Shown piece by piece: positions 492-40,762 of a DNA stretch of 50,910 nt. This DNA is from a virus (taxonomy: Duplodnaviria; Caudoviricetes). Under the pieces are notes generated by a model, which made no database searches, had not been told where the DNA came from, and saw nothing but the letters and a program-made list of their open reading frames with translations. Made by a program: the position numbers and the translations under genes. Numbering within the stretch: the stretch's first letter is position 1; the number at the start of each line of letters is the position of its first letter. Where the stretch lies: positions 1-50,910 of the IMG/VR virus record IMGVR_UViG_3300034175_000007, one strand, 5' to 3'.

Positions 492-1121
492 TTAGCCCTT
501 GACGCTCGCGCCGGGCATGAACTGCTTGATGATAGTACCCAGATCAGTCTTGAAGCCGGCGCCGAGTGCTTCGAACTCCCAGTTGCCCGAAGGCTTCTTG
601 GTGAGCGACCCAAACTGAACAGCGTAGTTATCGCCGCCGTCTTCCTTCAGGTTGTACTTGACGATCTCCCGAGTGGGCTCGCCGGCCGCATCCATCTCGC
701 AGATGCGGATGAAGGCGTCCTGGACCTTCTTGAAGTTGTGACCCTTCTGAGCGGCTTCATGGATCGTCACGATGAAGGACAGCTCGACGATCTGCGAATC
801 GATCTTCGACAGATCCATCTGGATCCATTCATCGTCCTTCGTGGGAAGACCGGTCGGGCTGAGACCGTCGACACCATCGCGATTGTCTGGCGAATGGATG
901 AGACCCTTGCAAGGCGACTCGAGGTTGTTGTACCAGATGAAGTACGGAGGCGAGAGGAGTTCAGGATCGCCAGCCGCGTTGATACGGCAGGGGAACAGCG
1001 AAACGTCGAGATCATAGGCCTCCGGACTCGTCCAGCCCATGCCGACATAGAATCGGCTAACGTTGGGAGCAGCCTTGGTCAGATCAAACGTCTGACCCTT
1101 CGAAAGATCGAAATCAGCCAT
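492..1121 (-). CDS. terD: TerD-family tellurite/stress-response protein
   Basis: Motifs VGMGW, YDLDVSLF, YNNL, SPDNRDG, DDE, FIVTIHEA, WEFEALG; GAGGA RBS supports the MADF start at 1121 rather than 1184. Confidence 0.9.
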   Translation of the reverse strand: MADFDLSKGQTFDLTKAAPNVSRFYVGMGWTSPEAYDLDVSLFPCRINAAGDPELLSPPYFIWYNNLESPCKGLIHSPDNRDGVDGLSPTGLPTKDDEWIQMDLSKIDSQIVELSFIVTIHEAAQKGHNFKKVQDAFIRICEMDAAGEPTREIVKYNLKEDGGDNYAVQFGSLTKKPSGNWEFEALGAGFKTDLGTIIKQFMPGASVKG

Positions 1122-1257
1122 GTATGTATTCCTCGTGTGTGAAGCAGGCGTAGGAAGGAAGCGCCTGCTGAATAGACGAAACATTCGGATTTAGTTCCCT
1201 TTACCTTCCTTCCATGACTTTTATATCATGATAGGAAAGAAATGTCAATGGCGGTGA

Positions 1258-1866
1258 TTAGTTAAAGTAAGCGAGCAGCTCAGGGATGCCATGGTAGAAC
1301 ATCTTAGCTGCAATGATCAGGATGAACGCAAGACCGACCCATGCGATCCATGCCCAACGCTGGATCATATTCGAGACGAACTTGGCAGCAAAGGCCATGA
1401 TGGCGACCGACAGAACAAGACCGAAGACGAGTGCTTCCCAATGATCGCGGGCCGTGCCAGCGACAGCAAGGACGTTATCGATGCTCATAGAGAGATCAGC
1501 GACAGTGATAGCGATCATAGCCGATGCAAAGGTGCGTGGAGCCTTGGTTTCGGTAGAGTCGTTCAGATCACCGTCATCCTTGAGGTCCTTGTACATGTTG
1601 TACGCGACCCAGATAAGAGCGGCTGCACCGATGACCTGGATGCCAGGGATCATGAGCAGATAGACGGCGCCGAGCGAGAGGATGATTCGTGCAACAACAG
1701 CAATGATCATACCATACATGATGGCCTTATTGCGCTGCGCTTCTGGCAAACTGGCTGCCATAGCGCCGATGACTACCGCGTTATCACCAGACAACACGAT
1801 GTCGATAAGAATGACGCCGGCAAAGGCCAGCAACCCAGTGAGTAGCATTTCAGATATCCATTTCAA
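1258..1866 (-). CDS. terC: TerC/YjbE-family integral membrane protein
   Basis: IDIVLSGDNAVVI and ADLSMSIDNVLAVAG signatures; multiple TM helices. Confidence 0.92.
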   Translation of the reverse strand: MKWISEMLLTGLLAFAGVILIDIVLSGDNAVVIGAMAASLPEAQRNKAIMYGMIIAVVARIILSLGAVYLLMIPGIQVIGAAALIWVAYNMYKDLKDDGDLNDSTETKAPRTFASAMIAITVADLSMSIDNVLAVAGTARDHWEALVFGLVLSVAIMAFAAKFVSNMIQRWAWIAWVGLAFILIIAAKMFYHGIPELLAYFN

Positions 1867-1869
1867 AAA

Positions 1870-1893
1870 GGTGGGCGGACCGAAGCCCGCCCG
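1870..1893 (-). terminator. Probable intrinsic terminator/attenuator hairpin between the vWA gene and terC
   Basis: GGGCGG(GCTTCGGT)CCGCCC followed by TTTTT on the minus strand. Confidence 0.55.
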
Positions 1894-1899
1894 AGGTGT

Positions 1900-2667
1900 T
1901 TAGGCCGAAACCTTGGCCGGGAATCGCTTGATGAAAGCGAGCAGCTTGGGCGTGATCAGATCTGCATAGAGATCCGCATCCTTGGCGCCGAACTTGGCGG
2001 TGATGAAGCCGACGTTGTCGAACTCCTTATCCAGCTGCTTCAGCGTGTTGAACGCCGTCGACTGATTGGAGAAGCCGATGAACGCGAAGAAGATCGGATG
2101 AGCCGATGCACTACGCAGAGCAGCCTGGATGAGGCCGATCCGCTCGCTGTTGGGATCACCATCAGTCAGGACGAGAACCAGCGTCGGTTCCTTGGCGCCG
2201 CTAGCCGACTGCATCGGCACACGCTCCTGATACTCCTCGGTCTTCGAGCCGAAGCCCATGAAGCCCTTGACAGTACGAGTCTTGGTCACCGTCTCGTATG
2301 CGATTGCATCCGAACCATACCGGTTGTTCACGATATAGTTAATGAACGGTGAGTAGGACGTGCCGCCGCGTACATTAATGCGACGGTTGCGGACGAACGT
2401 CTTATAATCGTCCACGGTCCAGGTGCCGACGTAATCGACCTGATCGTCGAACTTGACGATATCGATCTCGTTGTTGTCATCGAACTTGATTGCGACACCA
2501 CCGAACTGATCAAGGATGGTCTGCATCGAACCATCAGCGATCTCATCGTCCATCGAACCCGAGATATCGAGTGCAGCCCAGACCGCCATGACAGGCGCAT
2601 CAGTTACACCCTTCTTGGCGAGCTCGAACGTGAACGTCTCTGCCTTTTTGGCAAGATCGAAGTCCAT
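1900..2667 (-). CDS. vWA domain protein (TerF-associated vWA type)
   Basis: MIDAS motif LDISGSM, GGTSY, VLTDGDP; ter-cluster context. Confidence 0.85.
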   Translation of the reverse strand: MDFDLAKKAETFTFELAKKGVTDAPVMAVWAALDISGSMDDEIADGSMQTILDQFGGVAIKFDDNNEIDIVKFDDQVDYVGTWTVDDYKTFVRNRRINVRGGTSYSPFINYIVNNRYGSDAIAYETVTKTRTVKGFMGFGSKTEEYQERVPMQSASGAKEPTLVLVLTDGDPNSERIGLIQAALRSASAHPIFFAFIGFSNQSTAFNTLKQLDKEFDNVGFITAKFGAKDADLYADLITPKLLAFIKRFPAKVSA

Positions 2668-2681
2668 AATCTTCCTTCCTT

Positions 2682-3722
2682 TTACTTAACGAGCGTAGCG
2701 GCGAGATCACGGCTCAGTTGCTCAAGCTGAGGCGCTTCCGAGCGGAGACGGAGTTTCATTTCAGTCATGATACGCTCCCTCTCAGCAAGCGAGGTGACGA
2801 TCGCGTTCTGATTATTCTGAAGCGTCGCCAATTCGATATTGGACGTAGTCAACGAGGTGGTGACTGCCGTCGTGGCTGCGCCAAGTGACGCCGCGTTCTT
2901 GTTGATCGCATCGTTGGTCATCGACTTCATAGCCGAACCAAACTCTGCGCCCTTCTTCTGTTCCATATTGATAATGAACAGAGCGAAGGTCGACTGGAGA
3001 GCAGGGATCATCGTGCTCTTCATGTCGTTCATGTCGATAGCCAGAAGCGCCGAGTTGGTCTTCATCTGATCGACCTGAGCTGCCTGCTGCTCGAACAGGA
3101 GGCGGAGACGGCTGAGATCATCAGCACGTTTACGACCCATAGCCGATGCCATCTTCCAGTCAGCGACCTTGGATGCTTCCATCGGGTTGGTCATGTCGAC
3201 GACTGGAATGTTAGCGTCCATCCAGTCTGCGCGTGCATAGATATCAGCGATCTCGATCTCGAGTGCATCGTAATCAGCCTTGAGCTGGATCTTGATGTTC
3301 TCGAGGTCTTGGATGCGACCCCGGAAGAGCGCCGTCTTCGTGTCGAGCTGGGTGATGAGCTGCTTGACGGAAGCATCGACCGTATTGAAGCGGTCCTTGA
3401 TGTTAACCGCCTTACCGAACAGCTTACCGAAGAAGCCCTTCGACTCCATATTCGTGGGGTCGTACCCCTTAGCCATCGACACGGTCTCCAGAAGGAGGGC
3501 TCCCATCTCGTCCATGTCCTTCGACTTCACCATGGCGGTGATCTTCGAAGTGGCAGCCGGGATCGAGGCCGTTGCCTTACCGCCGAAGTCGATGACCTCG
3601 GAAACAGTGATCGGCTTCATGGCAACGCCACTCGATCGAGTAACCGGAACGACCTGCCGAGCTGACTCGATAGGAATAACGTTCGGTGTACTGACTGTGC
3701 CGCCGAATAGTGGTTTAACCAT
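2682..3722 (-). CDS. telA: TelA / toxic anion resistance protein
   Basis: Coiled-coil with KGFFGKLFGK segment typical of TelA; ter-cluster context. Confidence 0.8.
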   Translation of the reverse strand: MVKPLFGGTVSTPNVIPIESARQVVPVTRSSGVAMKPITVSEVIDFGGKATASIPAATSKITAMVKSKDMDEMGALLLETVSMAKGYDPTNMESKGFFGKLFGKAVNIKDRFNTVDASVKQLITQLDTKTALFRGRIQDLENIKIQLKADYDALEIEIADIYARADWMDANIPVVDMTNPMEASKVADWKMASAMGRKRADDLSRLRLLFEQQAAQVDQMKTNSALLAIDMNDMKSTMIPALQSTFALFIINMEQKKGAEFGSAMKSMTNDAINKNAASLGAATTAVTTSLTTSNIELATLQNNQNAIVTSLAERERIMTEMKLRLRSEAPQLEQLSRDLAATLVK

Positions 3723-8279: not shown

Positions 8280-8355
8280 TGGTGTGCACTGTGGGGCTCG
8301 AACCCACGACCCGGAGATTTAGAGTCTCCTGCTCTACCATCTGAGCTAAGCACAC
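8280..8355 (-). tRNA. Amber suppressor tRNA (anticodon CTA)
   Basis: GTGTGCT-TA-GCTCAGATGGTAGAGC-A-GGAGA CT CTA AA TCTCC-GGGTC-GTGGG TTCGAGC CCCAC-AGTGCAC ACCA. Confidence 0.9.
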
Positions 8356-10211: not shown

Positions 10212-11624
10212 TTAGCGGAAGTCGTACTTGTCTGCCATGATCGTCTTCAACATCACGCCCTCAGGAGTCATGTTCTTCAGATCTGCCGACAGGACAGACT
10301 TCATGATCGCTGGCGAGAAGCCCGAGATCAGAGCAGTGCCGGTCGTATCGTACTTAACTGGCGAGTTACCAGAAGCATTGATGTTCCAGAAGATAACCGC
10401 TGGTGGGGTGTACCCAGCACGGATATAATCGTTACGGATCATCTCGATAGCCGTAGCCGAAGGACTACGAATAGCAGCGTTGAACTGCATATCCGACATG
10501 ATGAGTAGTGCGCCTGGCATCTCGCTCTGTGGCACGCCGTTAGACACTGCCATCGTGAGGATCTTCTTAAGCGCTAGCTCAAGATTCGTGCTCATGTCCC
10601 AGTTAGAACGAGCCATGGTGTTGTAGCGCTCAGAGAGGCTACCACGAACCGTGACGAACTCTGTGCTGGTCGAGAACGTGAGGAACACATCCTTGAACTT
10701 GCCAGTGTTCTTGCCCGAACAATAGAGACCAAGTGAGATGGCGACATCGAGACAGGTGATGGCACTAGAACCGCCTGCCGAGCAGGTCATCGAACCCGAG
10801 ACGTCTACCAGAGGCAGAACATTCGCGTCACCGATGAAGTTAGGTAGTGCGTTCCACTGAGCATCGACTAGCTGCGTATCCCTAGAGCTGCGCAGGTTCT
10901 TGATGATGTCGTAAGGATATACTGCCGCAGCATTTACCTTTACGGTCTTATCACCCTTGACCAGCTTCTCCTTGAAGGTCGTGAAAGCAATAGGCGCCTG
11001 CTTAGCAAAGGCCTTAGTGTAACGCGACATAGCGAGAGATGGGACGTGGCTGAAGTTGATGCGCTCAAATTCACGTGCACACATCTGAGTCTCAACGACA
11101 TTCGTCAGAGAAACCAGAGTCTTACGATAGAACTTTGGCGACCAACCGAGGAACTTACGAAGCTCCACAGCAGTTGCACCCTTACGTGGCATCCACTTTG
11201 CAGCCAGGCCGTTCTTAGACTCTAGCGCATTACGAATGATGCTGAACGCGAGGAACTTAACCTCTGGGTTCGTGAAGATGAGAAGGTCGTCGAAACGGCC
11301 GAGCTCAGGAACACGATTCAGAAGATTCGTCTCGAGCAGATAGCGAGGGTTTGACTTCTCAAGCTGGAGCAGGATGTCACGGAAGAGCTTACGCTCACCG
11401 GCACCACCACGGATATCACGACCCCAGAGGGCGATACGGATGGCGTATTCAGGATTCTCTGCTAGAGCCTGAGCGAATAGATTGGTAATGTCCTTACCAC
11501 GAGAAGCGCCGAGCTGACCGAATAGATCGGTGTTAGCGCGATTGGTAGACGTATATGCTGCCATACCATTGGTCGTGGTGGTACGAACAGGAGTGCCGCG
11601 TACGGCTGATGCGAAAGTCGTCAT
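10212..11624 (-). CDS. DUF2828-family Ro60/TROVE-like helical-repeat plus vWA protein
   Basis: TTTTNGM, DLF, RDIRGGAGER, PELGRFDDL, LAAKWMPR, C-terminal MIDAS DVSGSM, SDMQF, FWN, LISGFSP. Confidence 0.85.
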   Translation of the reverse strand: MTTFASAVRGTPVRTTTTNGMAAYTSTNRANTDLFGQLGASRGKDITNLFAQALAENPEYAIRIALWGRDIRGGAGERKLFRDILLQLEKSNPRYLLETNLLNRVPELGRFDDLLIFTNPEVKFLAFSIIRNALESKNGLAAKWMPRKGATAVELRKFLGWSPKFYRKTLVSLTNVVETQMCAREFERINFSHVPSLAMSRYTKAFAKQAPIAFTTFKEKLVKGDKTVKVNAAAVYPYDIIKNLRSSRDTQLVDAQWNALPNFIGDANVLPLVDVSGSMTCSAGGSSAITCLDVAISLGLYCSGKNTGKFKDVFLTFSTSTEFVTVRGSLSERYNTMARSNWDMSTNLELALKKILTMAVSNGVPQSEMPGALLIMSDMQFNAAIRSPSATAIEMIRNDYIRAGYTPPAVIFWNINASGNSPVKYDTTGTALISGFSPAIMKSVLSADLKNMTPEGVMLKTIMADKYDFR

Positions 11625-14851: not shown

Positions 14852-14951
14852 TGGCCGGTGGCAGGATTCAAACCTGCATCACGCCCTCACTCAAACCCCA
14901 ACGATTCGTGAATGTGAGAACGTCGCTTTAGCTCAGTTAAGCTACACCAGC
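14852..14951 (-). ncRNA. tRNA-like RNA with an expanded anticodon arm
   Basis: Acceptor GCTGGTG/CACCGGC, D arm, T arm GCAGG TTTGAAT CCTGC; anticodon arm replaced by a 10-bp stem (ACGTTCTCAC/GTGAGGGCGT) with a 23-nt interior. Confidence 0.7.
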
Positions 14952-16947: not shown

Positions 16948-17415
16948 TTATGCTGGACGCCAGCTCTCCTTCAAACCCTCAACATGGACGGCTGTATACG
17001 TGATCGTCATACTCGGATAGACAGTCGGCAGCTCTCCCTCATAGTCATACACAACTGTGATGTGAGGAATGTAATCAGGATAATCAGACGTAGCTCCGAG
17101 CTTCTGCATATCTGCGTACAGATCTTGCAGTTGTTCAGACTCTACGTGAGCGACCAGGAACTTGTTCTGCTCGTCTCCGAGCAGCTTCCATCCGACGATC
17201 TTACCTGAGAAGTACTTACCAAACTGATAGTCTTCTACTGCAGGGACAGGTGTCTTGCTGTAGACGAGCGTGGTGTGTAGATCTTTTGTTGGCACAACAT
17301 TAGAGAGGGTGAGGTTATCGCCCACCCACTCTGTTAGTTTCTTCGCGTCAGCATCACATGGTATAAGACTGACGTAAGTTCCGTGCTCATGCTTACAGAA
17401 CTGTTTGAAGGTCAT
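16948..17415 (-). CDS. acb1: 2H phosphoesterase, Acb1 / T4 gp57B-like (anti-CBASS nuclease candidate)
   Basis: Two HxT motifs (LHTTLVYS, YIPHITVVY) and N-terminal GTYV. Confidence 0.78.
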   Translation of the reverse strand: MTFKQFCKHEHGTYVSLIPCDADAKKLTEWVGDNLTLSNVVPTKDLHTTLVYSKTPVPAVEDYQFGKYFSGKIVGWKLLGDEQNKFLVAHVESEQLQDLYADMQKLGATSDYPDYIPHITVVYDYEGELPTVYPSMTITYTAVHVEGLKESWRPA

Positions 17416-27761: not shown

Positions 27762-28364
27762 TTAGTTGATGAACTTATAAGTCTGATTGCGAGAATTAGC
27801 ATCCAGTGGAGTGTCGCTTACAATGAAGCGGTCCTTGATGACAATTCCCTCAGCCTTATACGCAAGGTATACACTATGGCGATTACCGCCCATCTGAACA
27901 CCGCCATTATAACGAAGACCATCGAAGCCAAGACGAATCAGCTTCTCTCTTGCTGCTTTCGTGTTCACCATGCCGTTAGACATACCACGAAACACTTGAT
28001 CACCATTGAGATTCATCTGACCCGACTTGAGTTTCGATATAACCTCTAGGCGATCATCACCAGCACGAAATAGCTTAGCTCCACGAGCAAAGGTATCAAA
28101 GTCGTTGCCGATCATATCAAGCAGAATCTTGCCGGTGTAGATAGTATCGACATCAAACATGCGCTTGATATCCAACTCTACCTCGTAGATATACTTCTCG
28201 CCACCGAGGCGACGAGCCATGCTGGAAGCGTAACTCTTAGCAATGTCGAGGGTATCAGTAAAGTATGCGACTCCGCCACCATAGAGATCGTTAGCAATAC
28301 GAGCCTTGCTCTGCTCGAACTTGCCGAAGCGACCATTAGTTCCATGGAAAGCTTTGTACTTCAT
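27762..28364 (-). CDS. ADP-ribosyltransferase-like protein (ART-PolyVal type)
   Basis: FHGT...F...G.YFT....A.SYA...YEV.L...GFDG. Confidence 0.65.
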   Translation of the reverse strand: MKYKAFHGTNGRFGKFEQSKARIANDLYGGGVAYFTDTLDIAKSYASSMARRLGGEKYIYEVELDIKRMFDVDTIYTGKILLDMIGNDFDTFARGAKLFRAGDDRLEVISKLKSGQMNLNGDQVFRGMSNGMVNTKAAREKLIRLGFDGLRYNGGVQMGGNRHSVYLAYKAEGIVIKDRFIVSDTPLDANSRNQTYKFIN

Positions 28365-39352: not shown

Positions 39353-39709
39353 ATGCCGTTTTTATCATCGATATGGTTTAAGCTCGGAGCAGCTGCAGTA
39401 GCTATTGCGCTAATCTTCGCGGCTTATACCAGTCACGTTAACGGAATCAAGAATCAGCAGAAGATGGAGGATACAAACAAAGAGCTTATCCAAGCCATGG
39501 CTGATATCAAGATCCTACAACAGAAGACCGAAGCTCTCGATCAAGCTCAGTCTGCGATGCTGATAGAACTGAATAAGAAGAACGCTGCTGTCGTAACTAG
39601 GCAGGAGACGATCAGGACCTATCTACAATCTGATGACGCGAAGAAGTCAGATCGACCATCTTCAGACGTGATCAAAGAGACAGTGAGAAGGCTATCAAAT
39701 GCGCAGTAA
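39353..39709 (+). CDS. Inner-membrane spanin (Rz-like)
   Basis: N-terminal TM plus coiled coil; overlaps a lipoprotein gene; adjacent to the endolysin. Confidence 0.75.
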   Translation: MPFLSSIWFKLGAAAVAIALIFAAYTSHVNGIKNQQKMEDTNKELIQAMADIKILQQKTEALDQAQSAMLIELNKKNAAVVTRQETIRTYLQSDDAKKSDRPSSDVIKETVRRLSNAQ

Positions 39710-39977
39710 GTTCCTATTCCTATCAGCGCTTCTGATGTTAGCTGGATGTAACGGCCGAGCCTATCAGCCGATCAAGACCGAGTATAAGGTCGTCAAGCCT
39801 GATGAGTCGATGTACGTATGTAACGTATCTCAGCTACCCGATCCATCAACACTAACAGACGTACAGGTAGCAGCTCTTATCAACGATCTTTATGCGAATG
39901 CTAGCATCTGTAAGAACAATATGGAAGCGATCCATAAGTACCTCGACACTGCCGAGAAGATCTTCCAGTCCAAGTAA
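39699..39977 (+). CDS. Outer-membrane lipoprotein spanin (Rz1-like)
   Basis: Lipobox LAGC; two downstream Cys residues. Confidence 0.8.
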   Translation: MRSKFLFLSALLMLAGCNGRAYQPIKTEYKVVKPDESMYVCNVSQLPDPSTLTDVQVAALINDLYANASICKNNMEAIHKYLDTAEKIFQSK

Positions 39978-39982
39978 CACAA

Positions 39983-40014
39983 ATGGCGCTGAATCAATTA
40001 AGACTCAGCGCCAT
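39983..40014. terminator. Hairpin between convergent spanin and tRNA/ncRNA transcripts
   Basis: ATGGCGCTGA...TCAGCGCCAT inverted repeat. Confidence 0.7.
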
Positions 40015-40020
40015 AGTTGT

Positions 40021-40280
40021 ATTAGTAGTGTGCTGTTACGCCAAATGCTCTAAGGGTCTGACCGAATCATTGGGACGTACTCAGGTGCCAACCCATCTCG
40101 TTCCCTTAGTATCCGCCCACGAGGAATACATAATTCAGTAGCTGATAGCTCTATGGACTTTGCCTTTGCCGACTCCCTAGCGAGTACTGCTTCGCCCTCT
40201 GTTGGCACGTTTCTTGGGCTAGCCTCGTCGCTTCGCAACTCTTTAAATGATGGCTGCCTCTAAGCCAACATCCTGCTAAT
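40021..40280 (-). ncRNA. 23S rRNA H43-H44 (L11-binding GTPase centre) mimic RNA with a ~196-nt insertion
   Basis: CAGGATGTTGGCTTAGAGGCAGCCATCATTTAAAGAGT...insert...GCGTAACAGCACACT, closed by ATTAG/CTAAT. Confidence 0.8.
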
Positions 40281-40286
40281 CTAATA

Positions 40287-40362
40287 TGGTATCCGTGGAG
40301 AGACTCGAACCCTCACTGTACACGTTTTGAGTGTGCTGCCTCTACCGTTGGGCCACACGGAC
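40287..40362 (-). tRNA. tRNA-Leu(CAA), short variable arm
   Basis: CT-CAA-AA loop, CCA. Confidence 0.85.
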
Positions 40363-40560: not shown

Positions 40561-40636
40561 TGGTACCTACGACGAGACTCGAACTCGCACTGAATACAAC
40601 CTCAGTGTATTGCCTCTGCCGTTGGGCTACGTAGGC
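40561..40636 (-). tRNA. tRNA-Leu(GAG), short variable arm
   Basis: CT-GAG-GT loop, CCA. Confidence 0.85.
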
Positions 40637-40762
40637 ACGGTATTATCTCGGACACCCTCATAACCTCTTACTCTTGGGTGACGTGTCTTGTTTTCGCATA
40701 TGCAGGCATCGAAGGCTAATCCACCCCGCAACGGACACCGGCCGCTAAGCCGCGAGAATTCA

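Follow-up and report, generated by a model that had tools for sequence, protein, structure and literature searches.

A phage RNA family that copies the GTPase-associated centre of 23S rRNA around a structured insert

A free-standing RNA encoded at the 3' end of a phage tRNA cluster copies H43-H44 of the 23S rRNA GTPase-associated centre in two halves, held apart by an insert, and belongs to a family that recurs in cultured phages. It lies in the window, by which we mean the whole 50,910-nt stretch of IMG/VR record IMGVR_UViG_3300034175_000007. This contig comes from a T4-like phage that has not been cultured and whose gp43 shows at most 44% identity to cyanophage polymerases. We conclude that the RNA is real, with a function that is putative.

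Positions in the RNA are given in E. coli 23S numbering, in which we take H43-H44 to span 1051-1108. On the minus strand, the two blocks recognized in an earlier sequence-only reading lie where it had placed them (40275-40240 and 40041-40027), and the mismatches it had counted, one in 36 and two in 15, are the same in number against an actual 23S record, that of Salmonella LT2 (L013), which served as our 23S reference; this gives three mismatches in 51 nt for both blocks. The match was confirmed by blastn, with block 1 alone retrieving 23S records at an E of about 3e-7 in 2.3 Gb. When the whole 23S was compared with the window by nhmmer, this was the only stretch with rRNA similarity, as that reading had supposed. 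No rRNA gene surrounds the RNA, its helix 42 is replaced, and a cmsearch-type check against Rfam gave no match to an LSU model, so that it does not belong to a 23S rRNA. Rfam gave no match for the RNA at the gathering score or at E values up to 10, yielding only tRNAs and chance matches. This copy is paired in H43 at 1057-1081, 1058-1080 and 1062-1076 to 1065-1073, and in H44 and the closing helix at 1087-1102, 1090-1101 to 1092-1099, 1054-1105 and 1055-1104. The A1067 and A1095 equivalents are kept, at 40261 and 40037, and 1090-1101 pairs as U-A, all as first read. The minimum free energy (MFE) fold of the whole RNA was not exceptional against shuffles (z = 0.21); the structural evidence is comparative and not a matter of folding stability. 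The RNA shares with the rRNA centre its sequence, helices, tertiary covariation and fold core positions. It differs in being free-standing, in carrying a 196-nt domain at 1090/1091, in having helix 42 and Kt-42 replaced, in the U1090-A1101 pair, which is not the A-U or U.U of rRNA, and in having more variable exposed loops. The G1055-C1104/A1085 triple, described in part of PMC1919483 as belonging to the GTPase-centre junction, is kept. In rRNA the domain folds autonomously and forms the thiostrepton site, and uL11 needs its tertiary fold (sections of PMC6239185).

The RNA comprises 260 bases of the minus strand (40280-40021) at the 3' end of a cluster of 27 tRNA genes identified by ARAGORN. 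The CCA of the last tRNA (40287..40362, minus strand) ends 6 nt ahead of the closing stem of the RNA. ARAGORN reads this tRNA as Phe(AAA), but the Leu identity first assigned to it is plausible, because its D-arm is like that of the neighbouring Leu(GAG) gene and its anticodon loop can be read as CAA. The closing stem stands in place of rRNA helix 42 and was present as described, with one internal C.A mismatch; its 5' strand (40276..40280) pairs with 40025-40021 in the 3' strand (40021..40026). The 5' half of the centre, C1053-U1090 (40238..40275), contains H43, the 1082-1086 loop and the start of H44, and its G1089 and U1090 equivalents (40239-40238) fall between block 1 and the insert. The insert, put by the sequence-only reading at about 196 nt, has exactly that length (40237-40042) and is located at the U1090/G1091 junction. 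The 3' half, G1091-U1105 (40027..40041), supplies the H44 loop. A terminator-like hairpin does close the tRNA operon, as had been claimed (39983..40014, minus strand, 13 pairs, z = -8.1), and faces convergent lysis genes of the spanin type, where the plus-strand ORF at 39699-39977 has an Rz1-like LysC match. Transcription of the RNA as part of the tRNA operon is likely, and 3' processing of the upstream tRNA would release its 5' end.

Both blocks, 220-320 nt apart, were found by blastn in 18 records from 14 cultured phages. Thirteen regions were fetched, comprising eleven split-motif phages (XaC1, Kaldavass, XacN1, ME3, GAP32, RSP15, BF, Milchi, 4_4572, CBB and fHe-Yen9-04), one real rRNA in a phage record (L008) and one reference 23S; pf16 is a further carrier of the split motif. 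Scanning IMG/VR twice from the 5' block yielded 72 and at least 120 loci. With the phage-type loci from GTDB and the window itself, 199 records have both blocks under a strict pattern; 12 loci without a 3' block under that pattern, several of which are cut short or have a variant 3' block, were left out of the counts. After removal of redundancy, the 198 records with a full-length 5' block leave 126 inserts of 26-357 nt, so that the bipartite motif first read in the window is borne out in phage genomes by these inserts and by the eleven cultured phages. A 3'-anchored IMG/VR set consisted of 119 matches of an 18-nt 3' motif among about 330 estimated. A 5' block was found upstream at no more than 12 mismatches in 34 for 108 of the 119 listed matches, whereas the downstream control always had at least 13 mismatches. 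Positions fixed by the search patterns, of which there are several, were not counted as evidence of covariation, and because family members are related the counts overstate the number of independent events.

A potential concern is that assembly has joined host rRNA to phage DNA, or that the RNA is a captured fragment in decay, and true rRNA contamination does exist in phage records (L008). The copies in cultured phages and the pairing of blocks in 108 of 119 matches exclude an assembly chimera for the family. The RNA is present in the eleven cultured phage genomes that were fetched, no flanking rRNA was found, its two halves covary, and its G1089-U1090/A1101 combination is unlike that of Pseudomonadota rRNA among the matches listed. 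We consider this explanation hardly credible; the window copy is a typical, intact family member.

Some individual loci depart from the common arrangement. In Pseudomonas phage Milchi (L009:860-1365) the RNA occurs twice in tandem with inserts of different classes, and the core of the first copy has diverged; Astolliot similarly gave two matches. In L138 the 3' block is missing, and AT-rich DNA with a reading frame resembling a transposase comes after the 5' block; this is likely a disrupted copy. By eye, an apparent tmRNA start lies downstream of the 3' block in L142. Kt-42-like flanks were found by pattern search in one of the 126 family members. The copy at L164:1450-1600, on a 527-kb contig, has a 47-nt insert and keeps such flanks, and so might bind uL10 as well.

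The two halves of the RNA vary together across the insert. Positions 1072 and 1092-1099, which form a base triple in crystal structures of the rRNA domain, are CCG in 89, UUA in 33, UUG in 3 and CUA in 1 of the 126 non-redundant members, and are fully concerted in 122 of these; the same combinations numbered 65, 26, 4 and 1 of 96 in the independent 3'-anchored set. Position pair 1082-1086, presumably a tertiary contact like 1060-1088, swaps between UA (94 of 126) and AU (29 of 126). Three pair types occur at 1058-1080, and 1063-1075 and 1064-1074 also covary, as determined in the 3'-anchored set. Within the closing stem, which is free in sequence, the pairs 1051-1108 to 1055-1104 are formed in 104-126 of the 126 members with many pair types. 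The inserts of L002 and L156 are 99% identical, and both core halves have switched in concert between these two loci, which are sister rows at 100/98 on a tree that is otherwise weakly supported and on which both core states are interspersed. This covariation of the triple and of other GTPase-centre pairs across the insert suggests that the halves were selected as one fold. The proposal of a stand-alone RNA copying the H43-H44 fold is thus well supported, both by the covariation and by the copies in cultured phages. Judged from the aligned sequences, the RNA very probably folds into the GTPase centre with the insert in place, the two halves forming the predicted tertiary structure and the insert remaining as a side domain.

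The pattern-unbiased 3'-anchored set was also used to compare conservation of the fold with that of the exposed loop. U1060 and U1066 are present in 96 of 96 members and G1071 and A1077 in 95 of 96, compared with 70 of 96 for A1067, 71 of 96 for G1068 and 82 of 96 for A1070 in the loop. The same loop is invariant in Pseudomonadota rRNA among the matches listed, beyond which there were 222 further matches. To judge from these counts, the phage family conserves its fold better than its exposed tips. Mimicry specific to thiostrepton binding or to A1067, implied by the sequence-only reading, is weakened, given that A1067 is G in 23 of the 96 members. Pseudomonadota rRNAs, again among the matches listed, have A/U1089-A1090 and U1101, whereas the phage family has G1089-U1090 and A1101. 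This difference, the variable loop tips and the kept fold together indicate that the family is old and evolving apart from host rRNA.

A covarying helix of 3-4 bp closes every insert, and each insert ends in a 4-nt linker, which is UUUG in 107, UUUA in 17 and CUUG in 2 of 126. They form several internally conserved classes with covarying helices. The window insert belongs to the class of XacN1, ME3, RSP15 and GAP32, in which helices P1 (40237-40235/40048-40046), P2 (40232-40229/40182-40179) and P3 (40178-40175/40056-40053) make up a three-way junction and covary within the class, with P2 represented by ten different complementary sequences among the 21 class members scored; the conserved UUUG linker is at 40045-40042. 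A likely kissing helix, 8 bp between two loops, joins 40208-40201 with 40092-40085 (shuffle p about 0.01); it has covarying equivalents in the GAP32-like group and is individually significant in only 3 of the 21 members scored. Enforcing the class helices places the structure about 6 kcal/mol above the MFE, a figure in which the kissing helix is not yet counted. The purine-rich linker of this class was rejected as a copy of helix 42, since helix 42 was not the best-scoring part of 23S for a profile built from 9 linkers, and pairing of the UUUR linker with 1083-1086 was rejected for want of covariation with the 1082-1086 swap.

Using a motif pattern checked on the Salmonella LT2 23S, we found a sarcin-ricin loop in 7 of 172 non-redundant inserts from all scans, compared with 0 of 200 shuffles. 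Five of these seven (L014, L022, L362, L378 and L394) have the loop atop a helix followed by UYAA. The same helix and UYAA context in the class of the window copy holds a hairpin with the class GGGCG motif (40129-40109 here), which by this context would be positionally homologous to the sarcin-ricin slot of the relatives. The window RNA has no sarcin-ricin loop within 2 mismatches. A CACCCC..GGTAAG hairpin motif lies by the closing helix in 31 of 172 inserts. A second insertion site, with a hairpin after A1077, is used in seven loci (L331, L356, L365, L374, L396, L420 and L426).

The idea that the insert serves as an effector domain, put forward in the sequence-only reading, is favoured by the conserved scaffold of this class and by the sarcin-ricin loop carried on the scaffold of some relatives, and is opposed by the capacity of the insert to shrink to 26 nt. 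In a fuller version of this idea the GTPase-centre copy would serve to recruit uL11 or to protect the RNA ends, and the activity would reside in an interchangeable insert that binds the ribosome or a protein of phage or host. The several conserved classes with covarying helices, including the CACCCC..GGTAAG class, the variable loop bases and the different inserts of the tandem copies in Milchi are consistent with such a division of labour, but some inserts are mere hairpins of 26-28 nt, the cyanobacterial class described below has no insert, and the independent addition of sarcin-ricin loops suggests mimicry of the factor centre. We regard this explanation as unlikely.

The position of the insert also raises the question of an intron, whose removal would leave a contiguous 58-nt GTPase-centre RNA. 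Group I introns presumably occur at LSU site 1090, and the insert resembles them in following U1090 and in having a G ahead of G1091 in this copy; its removal restores the normal rRNA junction, as in L008. The terminal G is however replaced by A in 17 of 126 family members, inserts of 26 nt cannot be ribozymes, and the class structure is another kind of three-way junction. No Rfam intron model was matched at E values up to 10, and thus no catalytic core (P3-P7, G site) was recognized. The second insertion site in seven loci and the lack of an insert-skipping joint in RNA contigs, which cannot show absence, also count against splicing, and we consider an intron very improbable.

A second architecture was found among cellular genomes. 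Of about 410 stretches matched in a GTDB scan, 120 were sorted: 79 are true rRNAs, 8 are loci of the phage type and 33 are copies that stand alone and lack an insert. The insert-free copies are chromosomal or plasmid-borne and come mostly from filamentous cyanobacteria (for example L206, L211, L218, L227, L234, L237, L279, L298 and L310). When about 110 nt on either side of the match was viewed, a sarcin-ricin loop was present 60-64 nt upstream in 32 of the 33, the remaining copy being cut short, and the flanks by eye resembled helix 42. The cyanobacterial RNA of ~210 nt thus unites an unbroken H43-H44 with flanks like helix 42 and a sarcin-ricin loop, and has no Rfam match. It is on only 2 plasmids, and was absent from an Anabaena 7120 record. 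The insert-free class and the sarcin-ricin phage inserts indicate that two architectures join the same two rRNA elements of the factor-binding centre. Twenty of the 33 insert-free loci contain tRNAs, often in long arrays. According to parts of PMC8421152 and PMC10272220, tRNA arrays of this kind are induced under translational stress in Anabaena; those parts contain no mention of such an RNA.

tRNAs lie within about 1.5 kb of the RNA in 59 of 94 non-redundant loci, with 246 of 246 on the strand of the RNA; a tRNA is within 120 nt in 35 of the 94, and another 35 have none within about 1.5 kb. No recurring partner gene was found among 150 of the 153 flanking ORFs, 23 of these 150 having Pfam matches and only TerC recurring (twice), and there were no r-protein genes among these 150 ORFs of relatives or the 59 ORFs of the window. 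The same-strand tRNA context is what would be expected if the RNA were a docking platform for tRNAs of the same operon, where it would bind their elbow or the EF-Tu ternary complex or stimulate a GTPase, and in excerpts of PMC4974054 the tRNA elbow touches the L11 stalk with the acceptor arm near the sarcin-ricin loop. The 35 loci with no tRNA nearby and the lack of a fixed A1067 make this role distinctly improbable.

Transcript data come from relatives of the window copy. In BF-like relatives, contigs of two metatranscriptomes continue from the 5' block into the insert. Among contigs of four runs aligned to relatives there was no joint that skips the insert, although contigs cannot show absence, and one contig, from a run of unrecorded library type, covers the RNA in full and ends at an adapter where the closing stem has its final base. 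These contigs are weak hints of an unspliced transcript, since DNA can be present in such libraries. The depth in run X2 (167 on the RNA compared with 2-12 on neighbouring contigs) was rejected as evidence of expression, because the run had been picked by this RNA, its library type was guessed, and depth cannot rank genes. Runs with small word shares are no evidence of habitat. The two PA5oct RNAs compared, ncRNA001 and ncRNA002 (portions of PMC7318152), were rejected as family members at 16 or more mismatches of 34.

We propose that the folded RNA binds host uL11, which we consider quite probable, and that it would then act off the ribosome as a decoy of the 50S factor-binding centre, drawing away host factors that sense or attack this site in infection. 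The decoy role is in our estimate an even proposition. The least certain part of the model is the target, for which the candidates are sensing of the RelA type, a translational GTPase, and a nuclease or modifier directed at rRNA. Passages of PMC4974054 report that RelA activation depends on the N-terminus of uL11, and that in ribosome structures the RelA-bound tRNA contacts the L11 stalk while its acceptor arm lies close to the sarcin-ricin loop. Weighing against the decoy role are the absence of a sarcin-ricin loop from this copy, the lack of a recurring partner gene, and the roughly 6 kcal/mol cost of the class structure. The Pseudomonadota rRNA rows listed were invariant at A1067, G1068 and A1070, and a strict decoy substrate would not predict variation at these positions; the variable tips therefore count against a strict substrate decoy, and in favour of the insert-centred role considered above or of a sponge for uL11. 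As a sponge the RNA would soak up free uL11, leaving ribosomes poor in uL11 and unable to switch on RelA, so that the host stays 'relaxed' in infection. Such a role fits with conserved positions that belong to the fold and not to the exposed tips and with the need for uL11 in RelA activation (PMC4974054, in part), but it requires exchange of uL11 or new ribosomes within one lytic cycle and leaves the sarcin-ricin loops and the complex inserts unexplained, and we find it quite unlikely. As a generalization of the decoy role, offered tentatively and with somewhat more doubt than belief, phages and cyanobacterial mobile tRNA arrays may build miniature protein-binding copies of the factor centre, with the uL11 stalk base linked in some to the sarcin-ricin loop and Kt-42, as a new class of RNA decoys against host sensors or rRNA-directed toxins.

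Ribosomal-protein mRNA leaders, such as the L10 leader, mimic rRNA sites and are cis-regulators upstream of r-protein genes. The phage RNA is like them a non-ribosomal RNA that copies an rRNA protein-binding site, but copies a whole domain where leaders copy the binding motif only, and has a terminator downstream, no r-protein gene and no Rfam leader match. GOLLD and ROOL are also ornate ncRNAs linked to tRNAs, but the phage RNA has no Rfam match to either. No large phage or bacterial ncRNA of the GOLLD/ROOL kind is known to copy an rRNA domain. Phage and L-array tRNA clusters are described in parts of PMC8421152 as counter-measures to translation-targeting stress or nucleases. The phage RNA shares their genomic setting, their strand and a strategy in which an RNA under attack is supplied or imitated, and differs in that it imitates rRNA and not tRNA. 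Neither Rfam nor the full-text literature searched, which included few subscription journals, yielded a description of a functional rRNA domain copied as a free-standing RNA. Six supplement files of PMC10690425 gave no match, and the family could be among the unnamed candidates of that study.

If uL11 is bound and factors are diverted, ribosome mimicry would join tRNAs and proteins among the means of phage counter-defence, and this would point to host defences acting at the factor-binding centre as an unrecognised layer. Natural RNAs that combine the GTPase centre with the sarcin-ricin loop offer a means to test how little of the ribosome EF-G, EF-Tu or RelA need. These ideas can already be tested on cultured phages that have harmless hosts, such as pf16 on Pseudomonas putida, and on cyanobacteria that can be cultured.

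Other features of the window were recorded, all on the minus strand. The genes at 40287-40362 and 40561-40636 are two Leu-type tRNAs with short variable arms, and 40640-40762 is a GC-rich non-coding spacer among the tRNAs, with a fold not above shuffles and no phage match. A tRNA with a CUA anticodon, amber-reading and labelled Pyl by ARAGORN, is located at 8280-8355. A Ter-type cluster (TerD, TerC, vWA and TelA), a DUF2828/DUF7788 protein encoded among the tRNAs, an Acb1 anti-CBASS gene and a weak ART-PolyVal match were noted at 495-3722, 10215-11624, 16951-17415 and 27765-28364. The tRNA-like element at 14853-14951, which ARAGORN missed and the Rfam tRNA model matched at 38 bits (z = -2.3), has a much lengthened anticodon arm.
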